NCBI RefSeq assembly: GCF_028641065.1
Contig: NC_073398.1
Location: 18,724,001-18,788,000, forward strand
Length of the DNA: 64,000 bases
From: Leucoraja erinacea
Taxonomy: Eukaryota
Direction: 5' to 3'
Position numbers and translations under genes: made by a program. Shown one piece after another: positions 1,033 to 55,007 of this stretch. Each line of letters opens with the position of its first letter. Position 1 is the first letter of the stretch. The notes under the pieces are model-generated. The model made no database searches. It was not told where the DNA came from and worked only from the letters and a program-made list of their open reading frames with translations.

Positions 1033-1416
1033 GTCTAGCAGGCTTACTGAAAATAATAGGTGCTCATGAAAATAATTGGGCTGTCTTGGAAGAACTGGTA
1101 AATAATAAGGCCTAGGTGCATGCAGCTGCAAGGACATACAGCAGTTAGATAGGATAAGATTAGTTTTGTTCCTGATGTACTGAATAAACCAATTTTCAGT
1201 TTTGGGAAGGATAGCTAATTTTAAAAATATTGTTGGACTACCGTCTTAAAAATAAAACATAGTTGACTGTTATTTGTAAATTACGGTGAAGCACAGGGTT
1301 GGTTTATATGAGTGCATTCTGAGAGCAACCTCATCAGAATTCAATTCAGGCCATGATTCTGAAACGGTACCAGAACCCATGGGCATATAGCTGTCGTACA
1401 GAGTTCTCGAAAAGCT

Positions 1417-1623
1417 ATGTGTAGGAAGGAACTGCAGGCGCTGGTTTAAACCGAAGATAGAAGCAAAATACTGGAGTAACTCAGCGAGACAGGCAGCATC
1501 TTTGGAGTGAAGGAATGGGTGAGGTTTCCAGACGAGACCCAGAGTCTCAACCCGAAACGTCACCCATTCCTTCACTCCAAAGATGCTGCCTTCTCGCTGA
1601 GTTACTCCAGCATTTTATGTCTA
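1417..1623. mobile_element. Fold-back Penelope pseudo-LTR mini-element
   Basis: An antisense pLTR arm is followed by a sense arm (...cccgaaacgtcacccattcc...gagttactccagca). Flanked by the direct repeat TCTCGAAAAGCT at 1405-1416 and 1624-1635. Confidence 0.8.
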
Positions 1624-2284
1624 TCTCGAAAAGCTTATGCAGTTAAAGAATGTGTGATATTCAGTGTTTATTTGCTGTTTTGCTTCTGTTTCGTTGTAGC
1701 TATAGTTGTAGTTTTATTTTCATTTTTTTCCCCTATTCATTTTATATTGTTTGAATGTTCTTCCTCCATTATTGACCAAAATTCCCAAAACCTGCACATA
1801 TATTGTTACACCTTCTGAACAGAAGCTTTATCTGAGAGGTTACAATTGTGTATAATCTCCAGCAATCTAGTCATAATATCCTTGTGCCAAATCAGTGATC
1901 ATTATGTTGCTGGCTAATAAAAGAGAGATAGTTTGTCATTCTCGTCAAAGGGTGCAGTGGACCGGCAACTATTCGAGCAAATTAGATTGTGTAGTAATTT
2001 CATGGTTATTCCAATTTTTAAAACTCAGAAGCCCATTGCGCTCATTTCTAGTTAATGGTGTAATACATTGTTTATTCTGCGAATTAGTTTCTGAAAACCT
2101 TCCAGGATATCCTGACCCAAAATAAACAGCAACTTGTATTTTTATGCAGACTAAATCAATTGCAAATGATGAAATATTGAATCAAGAATGTTAGAAATAT
2201 GTGTAGATTAATCGGTCTCTGTGCAAAGGAATGGTACAGTGATGTCTGGAGTGAAAGCATTCATTGCACTCCGAATAAAATCAT

Positions 2285-2578
2285 TGTGATAGAGAACTAG
2301 AAGGCATAGTCTTAATGTGAGAAGGTCAAATTTAAAGGAGGTGTGCAGGACTTTTTTTTTTACATAGTGTGGTGAAAGCCTGGAATGCGGTGCCAGGGAT
2401 GGTGGTGGAGGCAGATAGGATAGTGGCATTTAGGAGGATTTCGGATAGGTACATGAATATACAGGGAATGGAAGGATATGGATACGTGTAGGCAGGGGAA
2501 ATTATTTAACATGGCATTATGGTTGGCACAGATATTATGGGCCAAAGGGCCTGTTCCTGTGCTGTATGTTGCATGTTA
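2285..2578 (+). mobile_element. Degraded CR1 LINE 3' end
   Basis: ctagaaggcatagtctt...gcctggaatgcggtgcca...gggcctgttcctgtgctgtatgtt, a typical CR1 ORF2 end plus 3' UTR. Confidence 0.7.
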
Positions 2579-3128
2579 ATTGACTGTGAGGGAAGGAGTT
2601 TATCTATCACATTGATTTAATTTTTTTCTTTATTTTTCGAACAGACCCAATTGATGAATTTCCCCAAAAATGAATCGGTTGGTTTCTTGGCAAAGGGTGA
2701 ATTGCAAATGTTTTGAAATAGGAATCGAAACCTTCCTGATCTTATACAATGAAGCTTTCTTTGGAACCCGGCAAGGGCAGGCCATCAAAACGCACCTCGG
2801 TTACTTGTTTAAACGTTAGAATCATGCAACTTGCCTCTATTTTTAATCCTCAGTCATCCTGAAAACTCAGGAGAAAAAAGTAGTCAAGAAAGGCAACATC
2901 CATAAACTGTGCTGCAAAACTAATGCCAATTATTGGATTAATCTACCTAAATTTCATGAATAAGGAACAACTAATAGATAGTCTTCTCATTTCAAACAGG
3001 AAGGTTTGACATTGTGAACCACCATTTGCTTCCTCTGCCCTTGGTCAGGCAACCTTTCCAACTGCAGCATACACCATGTCAAGGATGCCCCTCATTTGCC
3101 TTGTCCTATATCCACACATTGTTCATAG

Positions 3129-3629
3129 CAGGGGTCAACAACCTATGGCCCCCGGGCCACATGTGGCCCATAACCTGAAATCATCTGGCCCGCAGGCAGA
3201 TATTTTTTACCGTAAACATCCGGCCCGCCAAGCGCTGGGTGCGGCCGAGCTCCGAGCACCGAGCGTGGCTGATCGCCGAGCACCGAGCTCGGCCGAGCTC
3301 TGGCTGTACCGCATCCTGCGCAAAGCTGCCGGCACGGCCGCGCATCCTTCTGTGAACATGTTTAAGAAAGAACTGCAGATGCTGGAAAAATCGAAGATAG
3401 ACAGAAATGCTGGATAAACTCAGCGGGCGAGACATGCAAGGATCGCATGAGTGCCTCACCCGCTGAGTTTCTCTAGTATTTTTGTCTACCTTGTGAACAT
3501 GTGATTTGATGCCTGCCATCCGGGGTGGGCTGGGGGCGGGATCCATGTGTACACTTGATAGATGTGGCCCGCCATCCGCTCACAGACGTGCAACCTGGCC
3601 CCTATGCAGAATTAGGTTGCTGACCCCTG
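3129..3629. mobile_element. hAT-superfamily non-autonomous DNA transposon (MITE)
   Basis: TIRs CAGGGGTCAACAACCT (3129-3144) and AGGTTGCTGACCCCTG (3614-3629); subterminal GGCCC repeats; 8-bp flanks GTTCATAG/CTTTATAG (6/8 identical), consistent with a hAT TSD. Confidence 0.8.
3362..3491. mobile_element. Fold-back Penelope pLTR mini-element nested in the hAT MITE
   Basis: Inverted arms (aaactcagcggg / cccgctgagttt) and a perfect 11-bp TSD TGTGAACATGT at 3351-3361 and 3492-3502. Confidence 0.8.
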
Positions 3630-3635
3630 CTTTAT

Positions 3636-3898
3636 AGATACAAAATGCTGGAGTAACTCAGCGGGACAGGCAGCATCTCTGGAGAGATGGAATGGGTGAC
3701 ATTTTGGGTTGAGACCCTTTTTCTAGACCGATGTCAGGGGAGAGGGAGATACATAGACAAGGAAGTGTAAGAAGTGAGAACAGGACAAAGGGAATGGAGA
3801 TCAAGGAAAATGTAGAATATCATTATTAGCTGGGAGAAGGTAACAACAAAGGAAACAGATATAAACTGTAGTCGGGGACAGTAGGACAGGTCGAAGAA
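3636..3898 (-). mobile_element. Penelope pLTR/3' fragment
   Basis: Antisense pLTR core (gctggagtaactcagcgggacaggcagcatctctggag...gtgacattttgggttgagaccc) followed by the purine-rich 3' region. Confidence 0.75.
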
Positions 3899-3940
3899 TG
3901 CTGACCTGCGGGTGATGCCCGGATAGGGTCAGGGTTAGGG

Positions 3941-4348
3941 TTACAACGTTGCTGTTCCCGTTCCCGGCCCCTGCTGCTTATCGACCCGACCGGTAGAGCC
4001 GGGCAGCAGCCACTGGACTAGGCTGCGACCACCTTCAAAGTGCGGGCACTGCTGGTGGCCGCCGATCACTGCACCAACACGCACTTCTGCCGGTACATGC
4101 CAAGCGAGTCGGACCTGAGCTGCCTCTTGTAGTTGAGCGACGCACGATGTCAGGCGGGAGCCCCAGCTGCCCGCTCTGTTGGGGGCTGCTGGAGGCCAGG
4201 TAACTCTTCGTGTTGCTGCTGGCCCCGCTGCTGTTGCTGCTGCCTTCCTTGTAGAGCTGCCCAAACCATTGGGCTCCACTTTGCACCCCCTCGCCGTTTG
4301 GCTCTTCATGTACTTGGCCTTGTTGGCAGCCAGTCTCTACATGGCTGA
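3941..4348 (-). pseudogene. Decayed FAM110-family gene fragment (FAM110C/D-like N-terminal region)
   Basis: The minus strand reads SAM*RLAANKAKYMKSQ from 4348, resembling the FAM110 motif SAVERLxADKAKYVKSQ. A shifted frame reads KRQLRSDSLGMYRQKC (4128-4081), resembling RPDSLxIYRQKC, followed by GRSLVQWLLPG. Contains an in-frame stop and frameshifts. Confidence 0.7.
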
Positions 4349-5889
4349 TGTAGGGTGGGGGGCGGGGGGCTAATTTCTGTGTAGTGCATTATAATGTATT
4401 TATGTGAGAAATACCGATTTTCCCAACATAATACTGATTTTCAGCCATCAAAATAAGGAAATGCTCCGTGAAACTTGGCAGCTCTGCAATTAATCACAAT
4501 CACATTATGTTTGAAAATTCAAAATGTGCTTTGTGATCTAGAATTTGTTATAATAGTATGACAGTAAAATTGGTTAGTTTGAAAGTGATCATAGTAATGT
4601 AAATGCACCATTTAGTTTGACTTCAAGTTTTTGTTACTGCAAAAACTTACAGTATTTTATTTGCAGTTTTTGCATGCTCCTTTATAACATTTTACAACAG
4701 TACAACTTGATTATTCAAACAAGGACAACTTCAATTCTTGATTTTTAAAAAAAAATCTATACAACAATGGCCCCAATAATCCCATTCCACCCACTCATCC
4801 CATACTCACTTGACTCAACCAAAATTATTTCTGAAATATTGGTCATAAATTTGGTGCAAAAATGCTCCAAAATAAGTCTCAGAATGCACCAGAGGGCATC
4901 TAAAACCCCAGAGCTTCCAGGGCCCGCTTAAGGGCCCTGGACCAAGCTGCGAGGGGCTTCACGCTCGTGATGTGCGTTGCGCACACATTATTTCACATAA
5001 AATGTTTGTAATCCTGTCATGCCACCCCCCTTTTTCAAAAGCTTCGTATTGGCCTGAACTTGTCTATTTCTTGTTACAGACGTCAATCAGTCTGTTTCAT
5101 GTTGCCAGCTTTCCCTGCTTTTATTTGCACTCTGGTTGCTGTGCAATTGCTTTGTGTACCTGGAAAGTAATTGTAATGTATATATTGAGCCTTGTGATAT
5201 TTATTTGGACTTCAATAGCACTTGGTTTGTTCACTACCTGCATCTAAGACAGATCAAATTATTGGAATTCGACACGTGGATTCCCTTGAAAGCTCAAAAG
5301 AAGCCACAATATAACCTTGTTTATTGGCTGCCTCCACTATCATCCACCCGCCGCCAGCCCAATTGAATCTAGATGATTTGTTTAAAGGTGAAATTGAGAT
5401 GGATATTGCTCATCAAATTTCAGGACCGATGCATGACAGCAATTCCGTTGAAATCGTGAATTTAACATCAATGTGGACCAAGCACCTGGTCTTGTTCCAG
5501 AGAATCAAATTCCATCATAATCAAAATGTAATATAGTGTAGCTCCCTCTGTTGCACATTTGTCCTTTGGAAATAAAAAAAAACAAAGGATTCACTGTTAT
5601 TCTTTTGATAATTATTTTATTCTGTCTGCAATCTGTGAAGGTAAGCTTTTGTTTACTTCTTTTAATGAGAAAGTATCATGTTGTCAAGTACAATGGAATT
5701 AATACGAGTGCTGGTTTCATCAAGGTTTCATTAATGAAAACTCTTGACGGATGCCCAGTTTGGTTCTGTTATTCCAGTCAGAAAGGAAGATTTGCATTTA
5801 TATGGACCCTCTCACATACCCAGAATTATTCAGCACCTGATTTAGGTATCTATCTACATGTGCAATATATAGCAAAGCTGCCCTTTTTT

Positions 5890-6040
5890 ACTCTTGCAAT
5901 TTATTTTTACATTTTTTAATGATAATGTTTTTTGTTATTGTCTTCTGTATATTGTTTTTACCGTGTGTGAGCAACGCACCGTCATATTTCTTGTATGTGT
6001 ACAAATCTGGCCAATAAATTGATTCTGATTCTGATTCTGT
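5890..6040 (+). mobile_element. Rex/Babar-type LINE 3' tail
   Basis: ggccAATAAA followed by an (ATTCTG)n tail. Confidence 0.55.
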
Positions 6041-6111
6041 TTCTGACTCTGCTACATCATTCATAGCATTCTATAGCATTCTGCTATATTCATCATGCCA
6101 TAACATGATGT

Positions 6112-6277
6112 ATTCAAGAGAGTTAAATCTAGCTCTTCGGGCTAATGGAATCAAGGTTATGGGGAGAAAGCAGGAACGGGATACTGATTTTAGATGATCA
6201 GCCATAATCATATTGAATGGTGATGCTGGCTCAAAGGGCCGAATGGCCTACTCCTGCACCTATTTTCTATGTTTCTA
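6112..6277 (+). mobile_element. CR1 (HER1-like) LINE 3' end
   Basis: gggccgaatggcctactcctgcacctattttctatgtttctat terminus. A second copy lies at ~7117-7283. Confidence 0.8.
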
Positions 6278-6356
6278 TTCCTGTGATAAGGAAAACAGAG
6301 TGGCTAGTTGTCCACTGCAAGCTCTACAAACAGTTGTGTGATAATGATTTTTTTTC

Positions 6357-6780
6357 CTACTGCTCGTAGGCCCATCTTGGTCATGACTGACCATGGGTGA
6401 TGCATCCTGGTCGGATGCAAGCCTGGGCGATGTCATATGGAGGACAGGCTGTTGCCAATGCAGCACGTTCCCCCTCTCCACACTGCTGACCGATCGAAAA
6501 GAACAGCAGGGCCGTTACAGTTTGGCACCAGGAGCTGCCAGAGCGAGGTGTAGACAATGACGAACTGCCTTAGAGGCGCCGACTCCAGATTTTCTTGAGG
6601 TTTATTCATGGAGCCTTTTCCATGACTGGGTATGGCCACAAGGCAGTGGAGGTTTTAAATCAGAGTTTTCCCTCCCCTAGATGGACTGCCTTCCCAGACT
6701 GACGAGCCCCATCTGCCCAAAACGTATGGGGGCGGGAGCGTCTACCTTCCCGTGCAGGTCTATAGCACCTGCCCACTACT
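6357..6780 (-). mobile_element. RTE-clade non-autonomous LINE derivative (5' UTR-rich)
   Basis: The minus strand contains GGCAGTCCATCTAGGGGAGGGAAAACTCTGATTTAAAACCTCCAC, resembling the conserved 5' UTR of vertebrate RTE elements. No ORF. Confidence 0.55.
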
Positions 6781-8599
6781 TACTGCTACTTCAAAGATAA
6801 ATATTAATCATGACATTAAAACTTTTCAAAATGACAATATGCAATCCTTTACATCCACCTGTGGGGATGTTTCAATGTCTCGTTTCAATGTCTCATTTAA
6901 AAGGCAGCTTTTCCAACAATTCCTTACATTCTCCATGTTGGGGTACCCAAGTCTCTTGAGTTGGACTTGAGTCTGTAAATTTTGGAATAATTCTTCTCTT
7001 CATAGCTATGTGTACTCATATTACACAAAGCTGTGATCTCCAAGTCATGTGTGATTATTCCAAAAATAATCTGGTCCTCATTACCATTTCTTAGAAAATT
7101 TAGAGTTGCAATTTTCAGTTAGATATAGCTCTTAGGGCTAACAGAATCAAGGGATATGGGGGGAAAGCAGGAAAGGGGTACATATTTAAGATGTTCAGCT
7201 ATGATCATATTGAATGGCGGTGCTGGCTCGAAGGGCCGAATGGCCTACTCCTGCACCTATTTTCTATGTTTCTGTGTTTCTATACATGTGGATGCAAGAC
7301 GGATATTGTTTTCAATTACAAATAGATATCGTTGTAACATGTTTCTATCATCGGGAAAACGACAAGTTATGAAATGGAAGTGTTTCCTATTTCCGATTAT
7401 AAAATCATGAGAAGCTGCAAAAATATCAATTCAACACACAAACCTTAATGGTTCCAAAAATTAAAACACTCCAGACAAAATGAAAGGCCGCTAATGATAT
7501 TTTGAGGAGTGCTGCTTCGAGCAAAGATACAGATTATTTTCATTTTGAGAAGTACAATGACACATAAATTAAAGTACAAAAGAATTAGAAAACTCAGCTG
7601 TCGTGGAGACATTTGTACATACTGAAAAGCCTATTGAGAAAATATACAATAGTAGTTTACACATTTCAAAGATTTTCAAAGTTACATTTATCTGTCTTAA
7701 GTTTTTGTTCAAGCTCAACTTTGTGCACTTGGAGCTCAATAACTGAAGTCAAGGAGAAAGTGGATTTACTTTCAAGAGTGGCTGTGAGTTACAAACTATT
7801 TCTTGAAGATGTGGTCTATTAGATAATTAAACTCAATTCAGTGGATGTGGGATTTTACGGAAGGTGTTTGATAATGTGTCTCAGGGGACTGCTTACAAAA
7901 ATGTAGCTGCATCGATAGAAAGAGATTTGGATGGCAAAATGTGCAATGTTACAGAAACCTGGTTATCACCCAAGAATGATTGGAAGCCACATCTTCTAGA
8001 ATCTTGTCAACCATATAACCATATAACAATTACAGCACGGAAACAGGCCATCTTGGCCTACAAGTCCGTGCCGTGTTAGAAATTGGAAAACCAAATGCAG
8101 GAGCAACAGTTACTACTTTGGCAAAAATAACATTTTTAGAACAGGTAGCGGGGAGCAGAGATAGTGTGCATAGAGTTAAACAAAATATGGATCAATAATC
8201 ACAGTGATCATTGCGATAAAATGGAGGGATGCGTAAATGCAAAGATCATTAAGCAAAAACAGTGTTTAGTTTAATCACATAATAGAAGGAAAAGTTAACT
8301 TTCATACATGCGTTAGTGAGACAGAACAACTGACACTGGATGAATCACTGGCAATAAATTTCTCAAAAGTATCCTAGCAAATTTATCATAACTGTCTGCC
8401 TCCCATCTGAATCCTCCATATCTGACTGGATGGAGAGAAATAACTGAGCAACTTATTCCAAAAGTTTCCAGAACACAACTGGCTCTTTTTTGTACTGTTC
8501 AAGTGGCAGAGTCCTGTTTAATACAAGTCTTACACTAGGCCTCATAGAAAATAAGATGTATTCCTAATGTGCATACATTCTTGCACTTTTTTAATTAAG

Positions 8600-9530
8600 T
8601 ATGTACAGTTGTAGTTACTCTAGTGCAATTGTACAAGACACTGATGATGGCACTATTGGAATATTGAGTTTGGTCACCCTGCTTTTCCAAGGATATTATT
8701 AAGCAGGGAAAGCACAGGGAAGATTTACAAGGATGTTGGCAGGACTTGAGGGCCTGAACTATAAGGAGAGGCTAGGACTTTTTCCTTGGCGTGCAGGCGG
8801 TTGAAGGATGATATTTTAGATGTGTATAAAATCACGAGGGGGATAGGATAAATGCATGGAGTTTTTATTTACCCAGAGTTGGTGGAACAAGAACCAGAGG
8901 ACAGAGGTTTAAGGCAAAAGGAGAAAGATTTAATAGAAACCTGAGGGGCACCTTTTTCACTCAGTGGGTGGTGGGTATATGGAACACGCTGTCAGAGGAG
9001 GTAGTTGAGGCAGGTACTATAATAACATTTAACGGACACGGACAGATAGAGTTTGGAGTCATAGTGTGGAAACAGGCCCTTCGGCCCAACTTGTCCACAC
9101 CGGCCAATATGTCCCAGCTACACTAGTCCCACCTGCATGTGTTTGGTCCATATCCCTCCAAACCTGTCCTATCCATGTGCCTGCCTAAATGTTGGGATAG
9201 TCCCTCCCTCAACTACCTACTGTGGCACCTTGTTCCATGCACCCACCACCCTTTATGTGAATAAGTTACCCCTCAGATTCCTATTAAATCTTTTCCCCTT
9301 CATCTTAAACCCATGTCCTCTGGTCTTCGATTCACCTACTCTGGACAAGAGATTCTGTGTATATACCCAATCTCTTCCTCTCATGATTTTATATACCTCA
9401 ATAAGATACATGGATAGAAATGCTTTAGAAGTATATGGGTCAAATGCTGCAAACAGGACTATCATAGATAAGGCATCTTGGTTGGCATAGACATGTTGGG
9501 CCAAAGGCCCAGTTTCCATGCTGAATAAAT
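8600..9530 (+). mobile_element. Degraded CR1 3' region interrupted by an antisense CR1 fragment (9051-9405)
   Basis: Plus-strand CR1 ORF2 end and UTR on both sides of the insert. The insert encodes LLSRVGESKTRGHGFKMKGKRFNRNLRGNLFT on the minus strand. Confidence 0.75.
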
Positions 9531-9792
9531 CTATAATTATATAACTTTAAGGACAAATGAGCTAAACTATTAAATAAATACTATAACAGAAGTGACACTT
9601 GTTTTATTTTATAGTTTAAAATAAAGAAGATGTTTTGACTAGGACTGCAAAATTCTAAATAAGAAACTATGAAAGTCTTTAGAATTTGAGCTTTAGGATT
9701 CTTTCAGGAGGTTATTGATATGTAATGATTTTTATTCAAAAGCAATCCTACAAATGATTGGTCACAGATTATCTGCGATGGTTATTGGCATA

Positions 9793-9931
9793 CAAAATGC
9801 TAGAGTGACAGCGGGTCAGGCAGCATCTCTGGCGATGCTTCTCTCCGGAGATGCTGCCTGACCCGCTGAGTTACTCCAGCATTTTGTGTCTACCGTTGAT
9901 TTAAACCAGCATCTGCAGTTCTTTCTTACAC
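9793..9931. mobile_element. Fold-back Penelope pLTR mini-element
   Basis: Inverted arms (cagcgggtcaggcagcatc / gatgctgcctgacccgctg) and a perfect 15-bp TSD ATGGTTATTGGCATA at 9778-9792 and 9932-9946. Confidence 0.85.
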
Positions 9932-10185
9932 ATGGTTATTGGCATATTGAAGCGATGATTTGCTATGGTCTGTGCATCCAGCTCTATAAAAGGAGCTGTG
10001 CAGTCAGCCATTTGGCATAATGGAGTGTTAAATAGCAAGAGATCAATAAACTAGACTTCAGTACTCTTGAGTGAGTAAGTCCTTGATGCCTTAATGAGAG
10101 GAACCAAGCTACAGCAAGCAAGGAATCAGTAAATTGCAAAGAATTCCTTATTGAGAAGAGGAACACAACTTATTTTAATTTTAAT

Positions 10186-10503
10186 GGGCAGCACGGTGGC
10201 GCAGCAGTAGAGTTGCTGCCTTGCAGTGCCAAAGACCCGGGTTCAATCCTGAATATGGCTGCTGTCTGTACGGAGTTTGTGCGTTCTCTCCATGACCACG
10301 TGATTTTTCTCCAAGATCCTCAGTTTCCTCCCACATTCCAAAGATGTACAGGTTTGTGGGTTAACTGGCTTGGTATAAAAATGTAAACTGTCCCTAGCGT
10401 GTGTAGGAAAGTGTTAATGTGTAGGGATCGCTGGTCAGAGCGGATTCAGTGGGCCAAAGGACCTGTTTCCACACTGTATCTCTAATCTAAACTAAACTAA
10501 ACT
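10186..10503 (+). mobile_element. HE1-type tRNA-derived V-SINE
   Basis: A-box (tggcgcagcagtag), B-box (ggttcaatcc), central ttcctcccacattccaaaga core, CR1-like 3' end and (CTAAA)n tail. Confidence 0.85.
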
Positions 10504-15330: not shown

Positions 15331-16107
15331 CATCCAGAGGAGCTGACCATTAAGGTAATTGACCCAAAATGTAATATCCTCTGAAATAAAATAATTTGAA
15401 AATATTCAGTGCAGGCCTGGAGATAGAAAAATATTGATGTTTCATCAAAATCGAACTTTGAATGCTTTTGAACATTCCTCATATTCAAAAACTATTCAAT
15501 TGAATGAAATTATTAAAACATCAATTACTAAGTAGTTTAGAAATTGAAGGTAAAACAATCAAAATGTTTTAAACAGTTAAATACATTTAACTAAACTCAA
15601 TTAATGTAAGAATCAATCCTTTCTTGCAGCTGTTCCTACCTATTGCCAGTTCAATTGGCTAAAAGGTTGCTTAGTGTTCCAAAATAAAATTATCCTCTGA
15701 TTGCGCAAACTTTGATTTACGGTATAGATGAAGACGAATACTTTCTATATACCTTTACAAGTAGTGTTTTAATCCCAAGAACAAAATTATTCAAATTCTA
15801 TAATTTACCTTTTCTGTCTGTTGCAATGATTTCTAGACTGGATGATTGATTCATTCATTGCAAAATTATTGATACCTGGACGATTCTGTAAAGCTAAATC
15901 ACCCAGAAGAGAAAAAAAACCACGATTCTAGGAAGATGATGAAAGTGATATGATTTCTAATCACAGAATCACTTATTTCTCTTCTATACTCATTAAAAGC
16001 TGGAGAAAAGAATGCATGACATATTTCCTTTTACATAGTTAAATTGTAGGCATTAAAATACTCAGTTTTGCATCCAAAAGCTATTTTTTTATTTAACTGA
16101 TTGAAAA

Positions 16108-17347
16108 CTGCAGATGAACACAGCACAGAAACTAACCCTGCTGGGCCTCAACACCACCCTGTGTCACTGGATCTTGGACTTTCTGACAGAGAGACCGCAG
16201 TCAGTCCGTGTTGGCAAGAACACTTCAGGCTCGATCACGCTGAGCACCGGCTCCCCTCAAGGCTGTGTGCTCAGCCCGCTGTTGTTCACACTGCTCACAC
16301 ATGACTGTGCTGCCAGATTCAGGGACAATAAAATCATAAAGTTCGCGGACGACACTACAGTGGTGGGACTCATCAGTGGAGATGACGAAACAAGGTACAG
16401 GGAGGAAGTAGAACAACTGGTGGACTGGTGCGGCAAAAATAACCTGGAATTGAATGTCGAAAAAACTAAGGAGATGGTTGTCGACTTCAGGAGGGCGCAG
16501 CCAGAGCATACACCGCTCAACATTAGTGGCACTGCAGTGGAGAGAGTGGAGAGCATAAAGTTCCTCGGTGTGCAGATAACGGACAACCTCACCTGGTCCA
16601 GGAACACCACTGGGACCGTCAAACGGGCCCATCAGCGACTGCACTTCCTGAGGAAACTAAAACAGGCCTCACTCCCCACCAACATCCTCAGGACTTTATA
16701 CAGGTTGGTGGAGCGGTTGGTGGAGTCTGTACTCACGTACTGCATCAATACGTGGTACTGCACCTGCAACTGCTCGGACAGGAAGGCTCTGCAGAGGGTA
16801 GTGAGGGGAGCAGAGAGGATTATTGGCGTCTCCCTACCCTCGGTACAAGAACTGTTCCAGAGCCGCTGTCTGAAGAAAGCACAGAGAATTGCCAAGGACA
16901 AACTGCACCCCCTCCACACACACCTGGATCTCTTGCCATCAGGCAAGAGATATCGAAGCATCAAAGCCCGGACTACGAGGCTGCTAAACAGCTTCCTACC
17001 ACAGGCGGTGAGGCTGCTAAACAGTCACTCTGCACGCACAGTCACTTGACTTGACTCTGCGGCTGGCACGGACACTTTAATAACTGGCACTGGCCACTTA
17101 AATCAGCGGCCCCGGACATTTTTTTATGATTGGTTTACTGTATTTTAACATTGTGTTTTTTACCTGATTTTAACTATTTATTCTGTTCCATCAGGGACTG
17201 GATTGTTTTTTTAGTGTTATTATGTGAGAAGTGTTTTAAATTTCATGTGCGAGGCTCCGCTATTCACTGGGAAACGTCTTTTCATTTTGCACTGTACTTG
17301 TTGCTTGCAAGATGAAAATAAAGGTTGATTGATTGATTGATTGATTG
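16108..17347 (+). mobile_element. Rex1/Babar-clade LINE, 5'-truncated, young
   Basis: Open RT C-terminal frame, 3' UTR, AATAAA plus (ATTG)n tail; TSD TGATTGAAAA at 16098-16107 and 17342-17351. Confidence 0.9.
16114..17049 (+). CDS. Reverse transcriptase C-terminal half of the Rex1/Babar LINE (311 aa, truncated, not a host gene)
   Basis: [77 protein letters not shown]. Confidence 0.85.
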
Positions 17348-17369
17348 AAAATGATACGAAATCTTATAT

Positions 17370-17560
17370 AGGCACAAAATGCTGGAGTAACTCAGCGAAC
17401 AGGCAGCATCTCTGGAGAGAACGAATGGGTGATGTTTGGGTCAAGACCCTTCTTACGTCACCATTCCATCTCTCTAGCGATGCTGCCTGTCCCGCTGAGT
17501 TACTCCAGTTTTTTGTGTCTATCTTCGGTTTAAAGCAGCATCTGCAGTTCCTTCCAACAC
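17370..17560. mobile_element. Fold-back Penelope pLTR mini-element
   Basis: Inverted arms meet at the hammerhead region (~17450). TSD GAAATCTTATAT (17358-17369) / GAAATCCTATAT (17563-17574). Confidence 0.8.
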
Positions 17561-17671
17561 CTGAAATCCTATATTGTGGCTAAAAGATTCAAAGATGTTA
17601 TGATGCATAAAGTCTGAAAACAGGCGATGATATGTAGTAGTATTCAGTTTTATTTTTGACAGGGACTTGTA

Positions 17672-20117: not shown

Positions 20118-20992
20118 TGCTATGAGAATGCAGGGTGACTTGGACAGGTTGGGTGAGTGGGCAGATGCAGTTTAATGTGGATAAATGTGAGGTTATGCAC
20201 TTTGGTAGCAAAACCAGGAAGGCAGATTACTATCTAAATGGTGTCAACTTGGGAAAAGGCCAAGTACAACGGGATCTTGTTCATCAGTCAATGAAAGTAA
20301 GCATGCAGGTACAGCAGGCAGTGAAGAAAGTGAATGACATGTTGGCCTTTATAACAAGAGGAGTTGAGTATAGGTGCAAAGAGGTCCTTCTGCAGCTGTA
20401 CAGGGCCCTATCGAGACCACACCTGGAGTATTGTGTGCAGTTTTGTTCCCCTAATTTGATGAAGGACATGCTTGCTATTGAGGGATTGCAGCGTAGGTTT
20501 ACAAGGTTAATTCCCGGGATGGCGGGACTGTCATATGCTGAGAGAATGGAGCAGCTGGGCTTGTATACTCTGGAGTTTAGAAGGATGAGAGGGAATCTTA
20601 TTGAAACATATAAGATTATTAAGGGTTTAGACACGCTAAAGGCAGGAAACATGTTCCCAATGTTGAGGGAGTTCAGAACCAGGGGCCACAGTTTAAGAAT
20701 AAGGGGTAAGCCATTTAGAACGGAGACAAGGAAACACTTTTTCTCACGGAGAGTTGTGAGTTTGTGGAATTCTCTGCCTCAGAGGTCGGTGGAGGCCGGT
20801 TCTCTGGATACTTTCAAGGGAGAGCTAGATAGGGCTCTTAAAGATAGCAGAGTCATGGGATATGGGGAAAAGGCAGGAACGGGGTACTGATTGGGAATGA
20901 TCAGCCATGATCACATTGAATGGTGGTGCTGGCTTGAAGGACCGAATGACCTACTGCACCTATTGTCGATTGTCTATTGTCTATTGTCTATT
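20118..20992 (+). mobile_element. CR1 LINE 3' part, young (251-aa frame)
   Basis: QFNVDKCEVMHFG, YRALSRPHLEYCVQF, RTRGHSLRI, VVSLWNSLP; (ATTGTCT)n tail. Same subfamily as 13678-15089. Confidence 0.92.
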
Positions 20993-21844
20993 CACCTTAC
21001 CCTTTGCAACAAAATACCAAATGCCATGAGCCATTCTAATTCAGTGTTGTACCGTATGCTAACCTTTTGGGTTTAGTGTCCCTTCTACTACTATGTTCTG
21101 TAATATCACCTCCAATTAAATAATAATTTGCTTTTTCATTCTTCTGTTCAAAGTGAACAGTTGATCACCTGCCATTTTACACACCATCTGCCAACTTGTT
21201 GTCCACTCTCACAACATATTTATATCCTTTTGCAAACTCTTTGTGTCTGTCTCACTTATTAAGATGACATATCTTTGTAAAGAATATCTACATTAGGGAG
21301 CATTGTCAAAATGACCCCCCAAGTATTCAAATACAAAAATCAGAAGTAGTGACTTTGTCTGCAGTCTGGTAAGAATATAAGATGTTATCAGAGGTTTGGT
21401 TGAGGCAATATTTAGATGGGATAAGGGAACACCAGTAGAGCACATGAGGAAGAATCCAATAATAATAGGTTATAACATTAGAGCTGAATGATGATGGACA
21501 GAAGGCCACATGTGGAGCAAAAACACCAGCAGAGTTCCATGAACTAGACAGTCATAATCAACCACCTTTGTAGTGCATATTCAATATGATTCTATTTCAT
21601 AACAATGTTACATCATCTTTGGTTATTTTTGTTCAATTTATTCTACTATATGCTAAAATATAGTAAGATATATGACAATAACATTACCATGTAACCCACC
21701 GCTTACATCCAAGAATCATTATTAACCAGAAACTCATCTGGACAGTCACTTAAATAATTTATCTACTAGAATATGCTGGGTATCCTGTAGCAGGTAATTA
21801 ACCTAATGACACCCTCAGGCTTTCTATCATTCTTAAAGCATAAA

Positions 21845-22200
21845 GGGCCTCTCCCACTTACATGTCCTTGGCCAGCAAATTACGCGACCTCGTGGTCGCG
21901 TTGAGGCGCACGGGCATCATATGGCCGTGCGGGGTCGGTCCCACTTAGAAGCATGGAGGGGTATGTAGTTGTGCACGACATTGCGTGAGGCTCCGAATTT
22001 TTTGTAGTGAACAAAATCTTCGTGTGCCAACGGCCTGTCGCGGAACTGACAGCCAAAGTGGGACAGGCCCAAGACCCTGGTACGACGCAATGTCTCACTT
22101 TCAACAGCAGCAGAAGCAGGCAAACCATCGCCAAACTCTGCCTGGGGCACAAGGCCATTGCGGTCCGGATCCGCCCCAACTTCTACTATCAGAGCGGGGC
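21845..22200. mobile_element. PIF/Harbinger-like non-autonomous element (partial)
   Basis: GGGCCTCTCCCACTT at 21845 and the inverted AAGTGGGACAGGCCC at 22056-22070. Same TIR as 45444-46870 and 52737-53195. Confidence 0.65.
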
Positions 22201-22204
22201 CAAG

Positions 22205-22415
22205 AAAATTGAAGATAGACACAAAATGCAGAAGTAACTCAGCGGGACCGGCAGCATCTCCGGAGAGAAGCAATGGGTGACGTTTCGGGTCAAGGCCCTT
22301 CTTTTCAGACTGAAGAAGAGTTTGAAGAAGGGTTTTGGCCCAAAATGTTGCCTATTTCCTTCGCTCCATAGATGCTGCTGCACCCACTGAGTTTCTCCAG
22401 CATTTTTGTGTACCT
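22205..22415. mobile_element. Fold-back Penelope pLTR element built from two pLTR subtypes
   Basis: The antisense arm is the GAAACGTCACCCATT subtype. The sense arm is the ...GTTGCCTATTTCCTTCGCTCCATAG subtype. They join at ttcagactgaagaag. Confidence 0.75.
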
Positions 22416-24641: not shown

Positions 24642-24649
24642 AGAATTAG

Positions 24650-35126: not shown

Positions 35127-35750
35127 TCAGGAAATTACACTTAAACCCTGGATCTTGCTCTTGTTGGCAGAGGATCATACCATTGGTTTATGTCCTGTTA
35201 GTACAGGTGCTCTGGTATTATGGGGCATGTGCCAGATATAGAAAGTCCAGCCCAATTAATCTTCGATCTTTGCTATGAAATTTGTCAGATATACTTCAGC
35301 ATATTGGTGTGTGAAATTCTGTTGATAGAAGTGACCTGGAAAAAATATTAAACCATGTGGGATATCTCACTGTGGCTGCTTGGAGTTGGGTTTCTTTTCC
35401 TTATCCTTCAGTTATAATTAACTTTGAGCCACTTAAACTTTATTGGAAGTACTACTTGATAATGGCATGCCAGGGACCTTGGGAAATGAGAGGATTAATG
35501 GCCTGTCTCCACAGGTCAATCACCATTTGTGAATAGAGAAACAGAGTTAACAGTTCGGGTTAATGATCTGACCAAAAGTTGCTGCACTCAACTCCTTGAC
35601 TCTCCAAAGATGCTAGCTGACCTAATTTATTTCCAATCTCTGGCGTCTGTAGTCCACCTACGTAACCAATGAAATTTAAGGATTTGAATGATCAGCAAAT
35701 ATCGAATAATGCAACAAACATAATTTAATCGTAGACGCAAGACTATAATC

Positions 35751-36608
35751 GTGGACTGCACTTCTTCCCACACTGCTTCCTGTAAGGACTCCATCCCCTA
35801 CTCCCAATTCCTCCGTCTACGCCGCATCTGCTCCACGGATGAGGCGTTCCACACCAGGACATCTGAAATGTCCTCATTATTCAGGGAACGGGGGTTCCCC
35901 TCCTCCACCATAAATGAGGCTCGCACCAGGGTCTCTTCCATACCCCGCAACACTGCTCTCTCTCCCCATCCCCCCACTCGCAACAAGGGCCGAGTCCCCC
36001 TAGTCCTCACCTTTCACCCCACCAGCCGTCACATACAAAAAGTAATCCTCCGTCAGTTTCGCCACCTCCAACGTGACCCCACCACTTGCCACATCTTCCC
36101 ATCTCCCCCCATATCTGCCTTCCGCAAAGACCGCTTCCTCCATAACTCCCTTGTCAATTCTTCCCTTCCCTCTTGTACCACCCCCTCCCCGGGCACTTTC
36201 CGTTGCAACCGCAAGAGATGCAACACTTGTCCCTTTACCTCCCCCCTCGACTCCGTTCAAGGACCCAAGCAATCGTTCCAGGTGCGACAGAGGTTTACCA
36301 GCATCTCTTTCAACCTCATCTATTGCGTCCGCTGCTCTAGATGTCAGCAGATCTATATCGGTGAGACCAAGCGGAGGTTGGGCGATCGTTTCCCCGAACA
36401 CCTCCGCTCAGTCCGCAATAACCAAGCTGACCTCCCGGTGGCTCAGCACTTCAACTACCCCTCCCACTCCGTCTCCGACCTCTCTGTCCTGGGTCTCCTC
36501 CATGGCCACAGCGAGCAGCACCGGAAATTGGAGGAACAGCACCTCATATTCCGTTTGGGGAGTCTGCATCCTGGGGGCATGAACATCGAAATCTCCCAAT
36601 TTTGTTAG
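35751..36608 (+). CDS. Penelope RT thumb + Cys linker + GIY-YIG endonuclease (285 aa, 5'-truncated)
   Basis: SIPYSQFLRLRRICS, CNRKRCNTC linker, NLIYCVRCSRCQQIYIGETKRRLGDRFPEH, VAQHFN..SH, EEQHLIFRLGSLHPGGMN. Confidence 0.88.
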   Translation: MDCTSSHTASCKDSIPYSQFLRLRRICSTDEAFHTRTSEMSSLFRERGFPSSTINEARTRVSSIPRNTALSPHPPTRNKGRVPLVLTFHPTSRHIQKVILRQFRHLQRDPTTCHIFPSPPISAFRKDRFLHNSLVNSSLPSCTTPSPGTFRCNRKRCNTCPFTSPLDSVQGPKQSFQVRQRFTSISFNLIYCVRCSRCQQIYIGETKRRLGDRFPEHLRSVRNNQADLPVAQHFNYPSHSVSDLSVLGLLHGHSEQHRKLEEQHLIFRLGSLHPGGMNIEISQFC

Positions 36609-36721
36609 TCCTTGCTATCTCCTCCCCTTCCTCAGTCCTCCTGCTGTCTCCTCCCATCCCCCAGCCTTCGGGCTCCTCCTCCTTTTTCCTTTCTTGTCCC
36701 CGCCCACCCCCGCCCCCCATC

Positions 36722-36755
36722 AGTCTGAAGAAGGGTTTTGGCCCGAAACGTTGCT
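36722..36755 (+). ncRNA. Minimal type I hammerhead ribozyme motif in the Penelope pLTR
   Basis: CUGAAGA (36725-36731), an extra A, stem II GGGUU/GGCCC, GAAA (36745-36748), palindromic AACGUU in place of stem III, NUH = GUU. Stem I is only ~3 bp. Confidence 0.7.
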
Positions 36756-39499
36756 TATTTCCTTCGCTCCATAGATGCTGCTGCACCCGCTGAGTTTCTC
36801 CAGCTTTTTTGTGTAACCTTCAGAAATACTTAACTTTGTATGCCATGTTACAAAGACAAACAGAAATACATTTTGTTCAGAAACTTTAAGATTGGTTATT
36901 GATAATTTATTAAAAAAAACTATGACCCATATTGAGGTGGGGATACTTTAAAATTGTGCCATGGTGAAAATAAATTATTCCCAGACAGCACTTACATTCA
37001 TTTTCAAAAATTAATTTAATCAAAGGAACTTACATTATGGATTTGTGTCCAGCCCTATTAGTGGCAAACACACAAAAAAAGACAATTTATTAATATTAAT
37101 AATAATAATTAATGATAATATTTAATAATAGCAAAGATAATTTAAAGCTGTCATTTTGGATTCTGAGACCATAGAAGTCTTCGTTTTGTGCATGTTTAAC
37201 TTGTATTTGGAGCAGCACAACAAAACAATTTTGAGATGTTGTGCAAACCTAGCAAAGTTGTGGCGGCACCCAACTTATTTCCTCCTCCAGTTTGCTGGGT
37301 TTCGATTAGCTGTTTTTTGTTAAATCCCGATTGCTCTACCGCAACACATCGGCCCATTTTTGAAATTTAGGACATGAGTTTTCTACATCGTCAGTCATTT
37401 GATTCTGTGCTTCTGCCAGGAATCGGCTGCACATTTTAATTACTTCAGCAAAACACCTCTTTTGATTCAGAAGTACAGATGAGGAAGACCAATTGACCTA
37501 TATTAGCCCATCTATCAAATCCAATTAATCTCCTGTTTTAAATGAGGTACGTGCCAAAAAATAATTGTGATAATTAGTAATATTTGAAAGCAGAATGAAC
37601 TAGCCTGGAATATTTAAAGATCATTGAAAATAATGAAAGGGAGGTTCAAGAAACCAAAAACAAAGTATATCAGAACATAAGAAATAGGAGTAAAAGTAGG
37701 TCAATTTGTCCTTCAACCTGCTCCATCAGTCAATAACATCCTGGCTTGACTAATCTTGGTCTTCATTCTTCTTTTTTGTTCCCGTGCCATACCCCTTTGA
37801 CCCTCTTACACTTTAAATTCCTTCCAATTTCTGCCAATGTGTCCACCTCCACAGCCTCGAGGTTATAGGAACTGATCTGCACCTCCAGCTGGGCCGGAGT
37901 TCCAGAGCCCTGGCTGCAGGGTGCAAATTTGACCCGCCGAGCGGCCATGGAAGTCCTGATGAGATTGACATCGGCTGCCTCACCCGACCTAGGCGCTACA
38001 TTTTCGGGGGGACTTCCGTGGAGGGTGGGGGATTTCAAGTGTGCTTTCGTAATTTTTTCTGGATTAAAGAAGCTTTCAGACCAACAGTTGCCTGAAAATC
38101 GGTGGTGGACTTGTCGTAAGGGTACCTATAAATACTTATATCAGATGTAGCTCAACATTTTGACTTAAGCTTAGGACTCCAGAAGAGATGCGTTCAATAT
38201 CATCACATGCCCAACCCAATGTTAGCCTAACCATTCAAGACACTCCACTCCATGGGGAAGTAGCAAGCTATAGTCAGAGGGTGGCATTAATGTAATAAAG
38301 CACCAGCCTTCAAACTACAGTATTTCCAAATATAAATGACAAGCACTAATCAGTTTTGCAATTACAAGAACAGTAAACAAATCTGTGAAGGGAACAAGGT
38401 TTTAGCTCACAGTGGGAGATATGTTTAGGAAAAACATGACCATAAGACATTCTCTTGTGCATTGGCCAAATGTAATCATTCGAGCTTTGTAGATTCAACT
38501 ACATTGACTTGACATTAGACACCTTGAGCTAAGATATTTTACAACATTGTGAGATAGATGCATGAGTTATACCTCCAAGCCCAGAATGAATACATGGAAG
38601 GTTCTAGGTTAAATTTTGCCATGTGGCAAATCAAACATGGCCATGGACATATTTACCTGTCAATCAACACTGTGTTTTTTGTATAAAATAACCAACTTTT
38701 GCAGTATTGATATTGTAAAGCTTCTGCTGACAAAACCCAGACATCCAAAATATTATGATGTTAAAATAAGAAATGTTTAGAATAATGATGTGAACTACCT
38801 TCCCTCAACAAGGATGTTTATGTATTCCAAGTTGATCTGGCCAATTAAGACGTGCAACCATTATACATATATGATTCCATGGAACCATTTGTTCACACCC
38901 AAAATATTAAAGTAGGCTGTGCACTGTAGCTGTTATATTTTACTTGATCACCTGCTATTACTCTTGTACGTAAAATATATATATTTTCGAGTCAAAACTC
39001 AAAATCTATTAAGTTTTATATATATAAATATAAAACTTGATATATTTTGAGTTTGGGAAGATTCTTTTTCACCGGGTCTCCTTTGTGTGTTTGGTGGTGT
39101 CAACAAACGACCAGCGAGATCGGTGATCTGAAGTAACTCATTCAAGAGCAATACTTGAAACTAGTAATCACATACCTACATTGACCGCCACTGATGAAGA
39201 CAGTCATTTCAACCCACCTGCTTCTGTTGCATAATTCTACTTCCGCTACATCTCTCTACTCGTGATCACCTTTACTCGCAGTCTTTGAGGCCAGACTGAA
39301 CCCACATCCTTTCTGTACCTTTGTGTACCTTGGACTCACAAAACACATTAAAGCAAAGTCTTAACCAATTAGTAGTCAGTAAATCACAAACTGGCCGTTA
39401 CTACTTACTTCAAAACATCAGATTCACAACATAAACATTTTTGGGTTGACTATGTCGCTGCAGTTTAAGGCATCTTCACAGGTACCAATGATTTTTTTT

Positions 39500-39685
39500 G
39501 TGGAAACAAAGAACTCCTGCTGCTGGCTACTACACAAAAGGACACAAAGTGCTGGAGTAATTCAGCAGGTCAGGCAGCATCTCTGGAGAAAACGGATAGG
39601 CGATGTATCAGGCTGAAACCCTTCCTGGAAACAAGATCCTTGGAGACTTGACTGGCTGAGTTTCTCAAGCACTTTATGTACCTTA
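39500..39685. mobile_element. Degenerate fold-back Penelope pLTR element
   Basis: gctggagtaattcagcaggtcaggcagcatc arm and an inverted ggctgagtttctcaagcacttt arm. Confidence 0.6.
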
Positions 39686-43339: not shown

Positions 43340-44482
43340 CATAGGAACATAGAAACATAGAAAATAGGTGCAGGAGTAGGCCATTCGGCCCTTCGAGCCT
43401 GCACGGCCATTCAATATGATCATGGTTGATCATCCAACTCAGTATCCTGTACCTGCCTTCTCTCCATATTCCCTAATCACTTTAGCCACAAGGGCCACAT
43501 CTAACTCCCTCTTAAATATAGCCAATGAACTGTGGCCTCAACTACCTTCTGTGTCAGAGAATTCCACAGATTCACCACTCTCTGTGTGAAAAATGTTTTT
43601 CTCATCTCAGTCCTAAAAGACTTCCCCCTTATCCTTAAACTGTTACCTCTTGTTCTGGACTTCCCCAACATCGGGAACAATCTTCCTGCATCTAGCCTGT
43701 CCAACCCCTTAAGAATTTTGTAAGTTTCTATAAGATCCCCCCTCAATCTTCTACATTCTAGCAAATATACGCCGCGTCTATCCAGTCTTTCTTCATATGA
43801 AAGTCCTGTCATCCCAGGAATCAGTCTGGTGAACCTTCTCTGTACTCCCTCTATGGCAAAAATGTCTTTCCTCAGATTAGGAGACCAAAACTGTACACAA
43901 TACTCCAGGTGTGGCCTCACCAAGGCCCTGTACAACTGCAGTAGAACCTCCCTGCTCCTATACTCAAATCCTTTTGCTATGAATGCTAACATACCATTCG
44001 CTTTCTTCACTGCCTGGTGCACCTGCATGCCTACTTTCAATGACTGGTGTACCATGACACCCAGGTCTCGTTGCATCTCCCCTTTTCCTAATCGGCCACC
44101 ATTCAGATAATAGTCTACTTTCCTGTTCTTGCCACCAAAGTGGATAACCTCACATTTATCCACATTATACTGCATCTGCCATGCATTTGCCCACTCACCC
44201 AACCTATCCAAGTCACCTTGCAAGCCTCCTAGCATCCTCCTCACAGCTAACACTGCCCCCCAGCTCCGTGTCATACGCAAACTTGGAGATGTGGCATTCA
44301 ATTCCCTCGTCCAAATCATTAATATATATTGTAAATAGCTGGGGTCCCAGTACTGAGCCTTGCGGTACCCCACTAGTCACTGCCTGCCATTCTGAAAAGG
44401 ACCCGTTTACTCCTACTCTTTGCTTCCTGTCTGCCAGCCAGTTCTCTATACACATCAATACTGAACCCCCAATACCGGGTGC
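43340..44482 (-). mobile_element. CR1 (HER1-like) LINE, 5'-truncated, young
   Basis: [21 protein letters not shown] (catalytic FADD mutated), YRALVRPHLEYCVQFW; (CATAGAAA)n tail. Confidence 0.92.
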
Positions 44483-52736: not shown

Positions 52737-53195
52737 TGGCCCTGTCCCACTTAGGCTATTTTTAGGCGACTGCCGGCGACTGTCATGATCGTAGCAGGTT
52801 GCCGTAAAACTGGCGACTGGACCCCACTTCAACATAAAATTTTAAATAGAATCATTACTTTAACAACAAAAAAAAACAAAGTCAGCAACGACGACAACTT
52901 ACATCACCTGACAAGAACAACCTACATTAACCTGATGACAACCTACGATAGCCTGGCAACAACTACAACAGCACCTACGTCAGGTGAAGTAATTGGCTTC
53001 AAACCCACTGTCGCCAACTGTCTCCGAAAATTTTTCAACATGTTGAAAATCCAGCGTCGACCAGAAAGACGCTACGACTCTTTGGGCGACTGAGGAGATT
53101 ACTCACGACCATACAGGCGACACCCCGGCGACCATGTGGTGACAGCCTAGTCGCCTGTAGTTGCCTACAAAAATCACCTAAGTGAGATAGGCCCT
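52737..53195. mobile_element. PIF/Harbinger-like MITE
   Basis: TIRs GGCCCTGTCCCACTTAGG / CCTAAGTGAGATAGGCCC and multiple subterminal GGCGAC repeats. Confidence 0.8.
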
Positions 53196-54792
53196 TTATA
53201 CTGGAGGCACAAAATCAAATCCCGCTTCATAACTTCAAATCATGAAACGAATCTGAGATAGTAGCAATGGTGAACATGAAACTTCCAGATGGTCTTATAC
53301 GTCATATAGAGAAGAAAACCTGATGTCCGTATCAGACCTGTCCTAGATGCGATCAAGTCAATGCTTCAATGGTCCTTTATTGTCATGTGTACCGAGCTAC
53401 AGTGAAATTTGATTAGCCATACAGTCATACAAAAAAGCAACAAGATACATAACTACATAAAGCTTAAACATAGACTTAAACAGCCACCACAGTGATGTGT
53501 GAGAATCCCCAGGGCACACAGCATAAGCGGACACACCTAGCCATCAGTTCAATGTCTGGGCCACACATACGCTCCTTCACCGTGATGTGACCAGAGTTGT
53601 ACCAATTGCTGTCACTCTCTCTGCAGTCCCTGTCTTAACTATCCTTAAAAAATTCTAAACCTAACCCAAATTTGATGGCCTCATTTTGTGATATGCACAT
53701 TTGGAGGGAGTTTCCAGTTATAAAATTAGCATTGTATAGCTAGGGAGCTTAGAGCTGGAGAGCTAGATTGTTGAACGTTAATTATGGATTGGTATGCCTC
53801 ATTCGACAATATAACGTTTTCACGGGTATATAGAGCAGTTTATGATAGACAATAGGTGCAGGAGTAGGTCATTTGGCCCTTCAAGCCAGCACAAAGACAA
53901 GCCAGCATAATCAAACAAAGTTCTCAATAATTCAACAGATTTTTCTGGAATACGCTGGAGGTGGTGGTGAATGAGTGGATACTGAGGAGCAGGAGGAGAT
54001 TTACTCACAGTAGCTTCTGGAGTTCTGTATTTGACCAGGCTCACAATTATTCCAGAGTATGTTGTCAGTTTTTGTCTGTTATGACAGGGCCAGATTTACT
54101 CACAGTAGCTTCACTGCTACTTTCTTGACAAGCCCTATGCTAATATTGCACTATTAGATTCCAAATGCCATGTATTTCTAACGACTGTCAGTCATATGCT
54201 ACATTTTGGTCTGGCATCAGTTTCAATCAGCCTCTCACAATTGCCCAATAAATGTATCTGGAATATTCATTTCATAATATATCAAAATAAGGATGTTATC
54301 TGGGACATGAGCGGCCATTTTACGAAAATCTTTGTGAACTTTCCATTTGCTATGATTTGTTATAGGCAGTTTGAATTCAATTTATGATGCTATAACAAAA
54401 TCACACACTTTGTAATCAAAAGATTTAGTTACACAAAAGTCAAAACTATTACATCCCAACATTAAACAGAAGTGTTGTAATCATGTATTAACTATGATAG
54501 ATAAATCCATTAAATCATGTTTGTGTGTTGATCGCAAGCCGTTCATTGTTGATATGTTCTTTATGAACAGTGTTATTGTAATCAACTCCATTGACATGCA
54601 AACACAATAATTTTAAAATATCCTGTCTGCAGACACCAAGATAAAATGCTGTTTCACTGAAAGGCCTCTCAGGCTTATTTTAACCCTTACATTATTTGTT
54701 ATGAGTCTGAATATGATAAAAGACCTGGATTTTCTTGATGATTTTGTCAAGGATGTCTTCGAGAGAAAATTACAGCTGTAGGATATGGATGA

Positions 54793-55007
54793 TGTAGGAA
54801 GGAACTGTAGGTACTGGTTTAAACCTAGGATAGACACAAAAGCTGGAGTAACTCAGCGGGGCAAGCAGCATCTCTGGAGAGAAGGAATGGGTGACGTTTC
54901 GGGTCGACACCTAAGAAGGGTCTCAACCCGAAACGTCACCCACTCCTTCTCTCCCGAGATGCTGCCTGTCCTGCTGAGTCACTCCAGCTTTTTGTGTCCA
55001 TCTTCGA
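54793..55007. mobile_element. Fold-back Penelope pLTR mini-element, young
   Basis: Inverted arms of ~80 bp meet between two truncated hammerhead halves (gtgacgtttcgggtcga / aagaagggtctcaacccgaaacgtcac). Confidence 0.85.

Follow-up and report, generated by a model that had tools for sequence, protein, structure and literature searches.

Short fold-back inserts in the Leucoraja erinacea genome are insertion stubs of an endonuclease-bearing Penelope-like element

A window of 64,000 nucleotides of the Leucoraja erinacea genome (NCBI RefSeq assembly GCF_028641065.1, contig NC_073398.1, positions 18,724,001 to 18,788,000 of the forward strand) contains seven short inserts that consist of two inverted arms of the pLTR (pseudo-long terminal repeat) of a Penelope-like element (PLE). 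These fold-backs are insertion stubs of an endonuclease-bearing (EN+) PLE, and all five features of EN+ elements that were tested were found. The hairpins were probably made independently at each site, where a staggered cut of roughly 14 bp would expose two target 3′ ends that use a single RNA as template, starting at a long and a short site. The observations behind this are the open reading frame (ORF) of the partner element, the length of the target site duplications (TSDs), the pairing of long with short arms, microhomology at both ends, identical variants in both arms and mostly unique junctions. An earlier sequence-only reading of the window had anticipated the Penelope origin, the asymmetric tail, the TSDs and, as one of two options, twin priming, which were all supported, whereas its ribozyme-processed RNAs, its retrozyme-like family and its undescribed system were not.

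Positions within the pLTR are given as columns of a model, in which column 1 is the start of the hammerhead region, cleavage is predicted after column 33, the long 3′ end lies at about columns 133-135 and the short 3′ end at about columns 93-101. All seven inserts proved to be head-to-head pairs of pLTR arms. The first stub (1405-1635, subfamily A) has an exact 12-bp TSD (1405-1416/1624-1635), a long arm at 1419-1540 (−, columns 14-135) and a short arm at 1541-1623 (+, from column 13). The fold-back 3362-3491 (subfamily B, 3351-3502 with its 11-bp exact TSD at 3351/3492, which is longer in sister copies) is the passenger of a miniature inverted-repeat transposable element (MITE) and combines a long arm at 3360-3434 (−), a 17-nt spacer and a short arm at 3452-3492 (+). 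At 9778-9946, a short arm (9792-9835, −, columns 46-91) and a long arm (9838-9931, +, columns 42-135) are joined 3′ of the hammerhead between exact 15-bp TSDs (9778/9932). The stub at 17358-17574 has a 12-bp TSD with one mismatch (17358/17563), a short arm at 17370-17454 (−, to column 9) and a long arm at 17455-17560 (+, from column 29). Thus, the four TSDs of 11-15 bp seen earlier were recovered, three of them exact. No convincing TSD could be found at the inserts 22205, 39500 and 54793. These are a composite of a subfamily A arm (−, columns 1-106) and a subfamily B arm (+, from column 3) at 22206-22415, an old copy at 39500-39685 with a long arm at 39500-39624 (−) and a weak, badly decayed right arm at about 39652-39684 (+), and a subfamily A stub at 54793-55008 with a long arm at 54793-54911 (−, columns 15-134) and a short arm at 54913-55008 (+, from column 9).

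In the order of the inserts, the junction columns are 14/13, 59/59 (with the 17-nt spacer), 46/42, 9/29, 1/3, about 11-16/decayed and 15/9. The inversion centre had been placed in or next to the hammerhead in five inserts; four centres are clearly inside the motif, one is ambiguous, two lie outside and none falls on the cleavage site. As predicted for a transcribed copy, in silico folding gave a long hairpin for each of the seven inserts, with energies of −55 to −146 kcal/mol and longest uninterrupted stacks of 8-32 bp. Two non-consensus bases common to both arms were observed at 1491-1591, inside the 32-bp perfect stack, and reflect either a private template or gene conversion between the arms.

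The assumed pLTR origin was borne out by the partner element, whose ORF combines a reverse transcriptase (RT), a CX4CxxC linker and a GIY-YIG endonuclease and ends in the same pLTR. At one fetched locus (L172), an open frame of 689 aa matches RVT_1 (E 5.9e-7) and runs into the pLTR; its GIY-YIG match is weak (E 0.005) and below the cutoff, with the motif visible in the translation. The window itself carries a young, 5′-truncated copy (35724-36819, +) with a 294-aa frame comprising linker and GIY-YIG, a 3′ untranslated region (UTR) and a pLTR ending at the short site, and at least 40 copies of its part 35760-36650 exist at 98% identity. The end of the GIY-YIG frame was also detected upstream of many solo pLTR copies in the genome sample described below. 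ORF-bearing copies without an inverted partner terminate at either start site, short or long, and partial tandems occur at L266, where the pLTR continues into further element sequence, as well as at L263, L268 and L277. The C-x4-C-x2-C linker lies between RT and endonuclease in both L172 and window 35724-36608. Such a CX2-5CxxC linker is given as a motif of Neptune and Nematis elements in PMC8557442; by this motif, the fold-back partner is a candidate member of the Neptune clade, which has the linker in common with Nematis.

A minimal type I hammerhead core was read from the alignments in the first 33 columns, comprising the core boxes, helix II and the palindromic positions 15.2-16.2. It was judged as a sequence motif of predicted activity against the description in PMC4209133, and a search with Rfam detected no hammerhead in the pLTR, only sub-threshold matches to microRNA hairpins. 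Across the sample, the same pLTR follows upstream UTRs that are rich in pyrimidines and fall into at least five different families, all of which end in a splice-acceptor-like CAG directly before the hammerhead core; a resemblance to splice acceptors is reported for the D. virilis element in the available text of PMC4209133. Upstream of the RT frame, a 36-bp unit is repeated in tandem at L266:7010-7330, and its copy number varies.

The abundance of the fold-backs was determined in a sample of 1.264 Mb from the 2.19-Gb genome, consisting of 464 kb around and including the window (contig C22) and eight 100-kb blocks on other contigs. A profile search with the 134-nt repeat gave 541 matches. Among 114 pairs of adjacent matches at most 30 bp apart, 100 are head-to-head, 3 tail-to-tail and 11 tandem, and the fold-backs are real and beyond chance. 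In total, 103 fold-backs with a gap below 60 bp were counted, which corresponds to 81 per Mb and, by extrapolation, to roughly 10^5 in the whole genome; this set was not de-duplicated. Their median length is 192 bp, and their density outside C22 is 2-19 per 100 kb. A TSD score of at least 9 was reached by 33 of the 103, compared with none of 309 flank-swapped controls. The proposed asymmetry, in which one arm reaches the 3′ terminus and the other stops about 30-40 nt short, was found in 73 of 85 pairs, where 42 would be expected (p 4e-12).

For the analysis of recent events, 99 young insertions were selected by two exact long-end motifs, i.e., the first 70 of 1,396 places of one motif, with one duplicate dropped (L212, a duplicate of L211), and the first 30 of 3,948 places of the other. 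Among them, 41 are fold-backs. Their junction columns were taken from a BLAST-based alignment with longer references, as the arm extension of the script stopped early at mismatches; the script had counted 42, and the BLAST-based set omits L211 and L248. At L211/L212 (contig C1 near 58,464,800), a young insertion has an inverted arm followed by several tandem pLTR pieces (columns 86-132, 48-132 twice and 9-131), which amounts to the long site being primed again and again. At L265 (contig C4, 98,420,001-98,430,000), L238, L248, L282 and L306, head-to-head insertions are large and their arms include ORF sequence, so that the fold-back architecture extends over hundreds to thousands of bases.

In the sample, the 3′ ends of the pLTR copies form two clusters, at about columns 93-107 and 128-134, and in 32 of the 41 young fold-backs the inverted arm ends at columns 90-101. 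An adjacent exact TSD was found for 50 young insertions, with a median of 14 bp and 33 of them at 14-16 bp. The mean overlap between TSD and RNA sequence is 1.66 nt for the 50 long ends and 1.67 nt for the 33 short ends, compared with 0.7 nt for random genomic targets (p 1e-4). This microhomology at both ends is what priming by the two 3′ ends of the target would leave. For 9 of the 33 TSD-flanked young fold-backs, the empty site with one TSD copy could be reconstructed and was recovered in further copies of the host repeat in the same genome, about six of them convincingly, whereas none of the four TSD sites of the window had an empty copy among the sampled and fetched loci. Over window 900-10300, repeats swamped the contigs of related species from four sequencing runs, which broke at the inserts. 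Two pairs of independent young insertions (L226 and L302; L218 and L221) each share one position within a multicopy host repeat but differ in their junctions or variants, which suggests a target-site preference.

Both arms appear to come from one kind of template. In all 25 informative young fold-backs, the two arms carry the same one-base variant (16 one kind, 9 the other), and both variants are abundant genome-wide, as the 1,396 and 3,948 exact motif matches show. Of 64 older pairs typed for subfamily, 49 are AA, 12 BB and 3 AB, where 21 AB pairs would be expected. Non-consensus bases outside CpG are common to the two arms of A-A pairs 2.6 times as often as after permutation of the pairs. 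The arm lengths are coupled as well: the 5′ ends lie at most three columns apart in 17 of the 41 young fold-backs (5.3 by permutation), and both arms reach the upstream UTR or ORF in 4 of 41 (0.6 by permutation).

Plotted against the predicted cleavage site, the breakpoints are not uniform. In the unbiased sample, 98 of 206 arm 5′ ends lie at columns 1-8, a bin that is inflated as the model begins at column 1, 57 at columns 9-24 and 3 at columns 33-35. Among the young arms, 25 of 82 end at columns 1-8 and 1 at columns 33-35; for the 58 young solo copies, 14 ends lie at columns 2-6, 2 at columns 33-35, and 26 copies extend further upstream. The uncut cleavage site is retained in 159 of the 206 sampled and 66 of the 82 young arms. 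The 41 young fold-backs have 36 distinct junctions, and the recurrent ones lie on palindromes (columns 1-9, 14-25 or 16-30) or on 3-nt microhomology. The fold therefore lies at the 5′ edge and the stems of the ribozyme and not at its cut site. A junction on the column-5 palindrome occurs in 1,065 exact copies genome-wide. From these ends we infer that the template mostly begins at columns 2-6, a sequence which we take to be initiator-like. RNA reads of related organisms cover the pLTR from both directions and include a few strand-switch joints at columns 11/14; no RNA data set on record was listed as containing the element. A spliced-leader origin of the boundary at columns 2-6 was considered and rejected, as no upstream exon is shared among the 59 contexts listed.

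Taken as a mechanism, the favoured reading would proceed as follows. A staggered cut of about 14 bp would leave two target 3′ ends, and from both of them a single RNA would be reverse transcribed, with one end starting at the long site and the other at the short site 35-40 nt away. Both complementary DNAs (cDNAs) would then run toward the 5′ end of the RNA, mostly 2-3 nt upstream of the hammerhead core (columns 2-6), and such a 5′ end would keep most products below about 230 bp. The two cDNA ends may be joined via short complementarity provided by the palindromes in the 5′ half of the ribozyme, or by trimming and short templated jumps, so that the ribozyme would mark the junction zone by position and palindromy and not by cleavage. 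Once fixed, a stub could multiply only as the passenger of another element, of which the MITE at 3129-3629 is an example.

Several points weigh against this reading. Among the 103 fold-backs, at least two are passengers of MITEs, and two pairs have flanks in common. The null for the microhomology was built from random genomic targets and not from AT-rich ones, and what lies downstream of one variant also stood in for the other variant. The variant concordance could partly result from variants that were active at different times or from gene conversion between arms. As the arms overlap in sequence, either one RNA was read twice or two sister RNAs were used. An extra G before column 4, as a hint at a cap, is present in 23 of the 41 young fold-backs (p 5e-4), but only in 10 of 20 (p 0.05) after removal of pLTR-derived flanks, so that the evidence for a capped 5′ end of the template is weak. 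Finally, the raw RNA reads of related organisms, which pool many copies, show no pile of starts or ends on the pLTR.

A further such point is that identical arms, overlapping columns and the 17 near-symmetric junctions, seven of them with tight loops of 2-4 nt, would also be accounted for by snap-back self-priming, as proposed for Penelope inverted repeats in PMC3846280. In that case, the first cDNA would fold over and serve as its own template, so that the inverted arm would arise without a second RNA-primed event, and the recurrence of palindromic centres, including the column-5 junction, agrees with this. As a general explanation it is unlikely, since in 18 of the 41 young fold-backs the short arm has more than three columns of 5′ sequence that are absent from the long arm and that could not have been copied from the long cDNA. 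The short arm also ends at a site that primes solo copies, with microhomology to the target. Snap-back may lie behind a minority of the fold-backs, those with tight loops.

It is less probable still that each nick primes on a separate RNA, as might happen if both subunits of a dimeric protein brought their own template. The anole protein is predicted to form a dimer (PMC11167929), and the three typed pairs that mix subfamilies A and B would fit. The complete variant concordance and the coupled arm lengths speak against it, however, and none of the three mixed pairs has a TSD; the one in the window is the composite with a pre-existing arm. Two sister RNAs from one locus are possible as templates.

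The sequence-only reading had also offered a retrozyme-like, non-autonomous family. Fold-backs of such a family would replicate through a hairpin RNA and reveal themselves by shared junctions. Two junction classes do recur among the 73 long-short pairs (1/1 six times, 21/4 four times), and one fold-back has an identical junction in all 20 fetched copies. Nevertheless, this explanation is largely refuted and retains very little probability: the junctions of the young fold-backs are mostly unique, those that recur coincide with palindromes or 3-nt microhomology, and at the commonest palindrome the centre base is found in either orientation with respect to the long arm. Arrays of tandem monomers, as retrozymes typically form, are lacking, with 11 tandem and 100 head-to-head close pairs, and the monomers are not bounded by the cleavage site. 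No fixed internal junction was found in unrelated flanks with fresh TSDs, as a self-mobile fold-back would have; the only fold-back that truly replicated moves inside a DNA transposon together with its old TSD and flanks. That hammerhead self-cleavage creates short RNA templates is refuted as the main route and the least probable of all, because cleavage would remove columns 1-33, which most arms keep, ends at columns 33-35 are rare in all three sets of copies, and cleavage is dispensable in vitro (PMC11167929). In its favour are the presence of a minimal type I core and the junctions near it.

The replicated fold-back is that of the hAT-like MITE at 3129-3629, a non-coding element of 501 bp that ends in inverted repeats, is flanked by duplications of 8 bp and is taken here to belong to hAT/Charlie. 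At least 40 copies of the family were scored, from 5,401 first-look candidates. All 20 fetched copies (loci within L152-L170) contain the same fold-back with the same junction, old TSD and flanks, two of them with short spacer deletions, so that the fold-back 3362-3491 was replicated, but as cargo. The 8-bp duplications are exact at L153, L155, L157, L160, L168 and L170, and match at six of eight positions in the window copy. The MITE copies were found with a query that included the insert, and empty versions could therefore be missed. A solo pLTR (3634-3723, −), which includes upstream UTR and has a short 3′ end, lies immediately next to the MITE.

The insert 22205-22415 has a different history. 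It overlaps a host repeat (21835-22316, +) with 85% identity over 484 bp to a copy on contig C1, which already contains the left pLTR arm. Both the window repeat and the C1 block (89370-89960) are palindromic, with short terminal inverted repeats, and carry the pLTR arm; on C1 the fold-back is of the A/A type, and in the window copy the right part is lost and a B arm is present. The insert is probably a secondary event, in which a B arm was joined to a pre-existing A arm. The earlier view that each insert is a single insertion event thus fails for this composite and for 3362-3491, whose TSD and junction were inherited with the MITE.

Regarding known systems, the fold-backs are not a new class of element; they are a real, abundant and known insertion shape, to which mechanistic statistics are added here. 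The consulted parts of PMC3846280 and PMC8557442 describe EN+ PLE insertion units with an inverted 5′-truncated pLTR, a one-sided tail of 30-40 bp and a TSD, and leave the mechanism of the inverted pLTR open or propose self-priming; the proposal of an undescribed system is not supported, in view of these shapes and of the two start sites in PMC11167929. The fold-backs resemble these units in the head-to-head inverted pLTR, the tail on one arm, the variable TSD, the palindromes at junctions, the partial tandems and the RT with a C-terminal GIY-YIG. They differ in that most consist of two pLTR ends without an ORF, at about 80 per Mb and with a narrow TSD mode of 14-16 bp. In a search of open papers in their main texts, none was found that quantifies such stubs or applies or tests twin priming in PLEs.

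For Poseidon_Ac, the available part of PMC11167929 reports that the protein nicks and extends both strands in vitro, that two internal start sites define the tail, and that uncleaved RNA is the substrate, with no need for hammerhead cleavage. All of this has its counterpart here. In contrast, the initiation site there is not homologous to the cut DNA, whereas a small excess of microhomology occurs at both ends here, and inverted products are not described in the text available. Poseidon also lacks the CX2-5CxxC linker that the partner element has.

In twin priming of L1, both target 3′ ends prime, which gives an inverted 5′ part, a TSD and microhomology at the junction, all of which are shared by the fold-backs. 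The arms of L1 insertions are derived from non-overlapping parts of the RNA with a variable second priming site, whereas the fold-backs have overlapping arms and a second site at a constant position. Non-LTR retrozymes form head-to-tail tandems and are thought to replicate via circular RNA (PMC4209133; bioRxiv 10.64898/2026.07.22.740005; parts consulted). Like the fold-backs, they are non-coding, derived from PLEs and equipped with a minimal hammerhead; the fold-backs are head-to-head and assembled at insertion. Pairs of minimal type I hammerhead motifs lying close together on opposite strands are noted in the consulted part of PMC4209133.

Among the other repeats of the window, LINE-like (long interspersed nuclear element) reverse transcriptases or C-terminal fragments were observed at 16105-17049, 20126-20890 and 43501-44376. 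Inverted repeats unrelated to the pLTR are located at 8873-9344, 22771-23066 and 38995-39054 and include an 80-nt pair with 99% complementarity and an AT-rich palindrome of 60 nt. A Pfam scan of 77 frames of the window revealed no host-gene domain.

The origin of the inverted pLTRs and of the tail is described as unresolved in the accessible text of PMC8557442, and the joined product is not shown for the Poseidon_Ac system in that of PMC11167929. The counts in young copies connect this in vivo question with the two start sites observed in vitro. With slightly less than even confidence, it can be proposed that the approximately 100,000 stubs record Penelope integration in vivo, in which an RNA starting from an initiator 2-3 nt before the hammerhead core would be read twice, from two fixed sites, by the two 3′ overhangs of a 14-bp staggered cut; inverted pLTR, tail and tiny inserts would then be one default product, and the ribozyme would serve as the joining palindrome. 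Through the stubs, many sequences that could form long RNA hairpins are scattered over a genome of vertebrate size, and one of them was amplified further by a DNA transposon.

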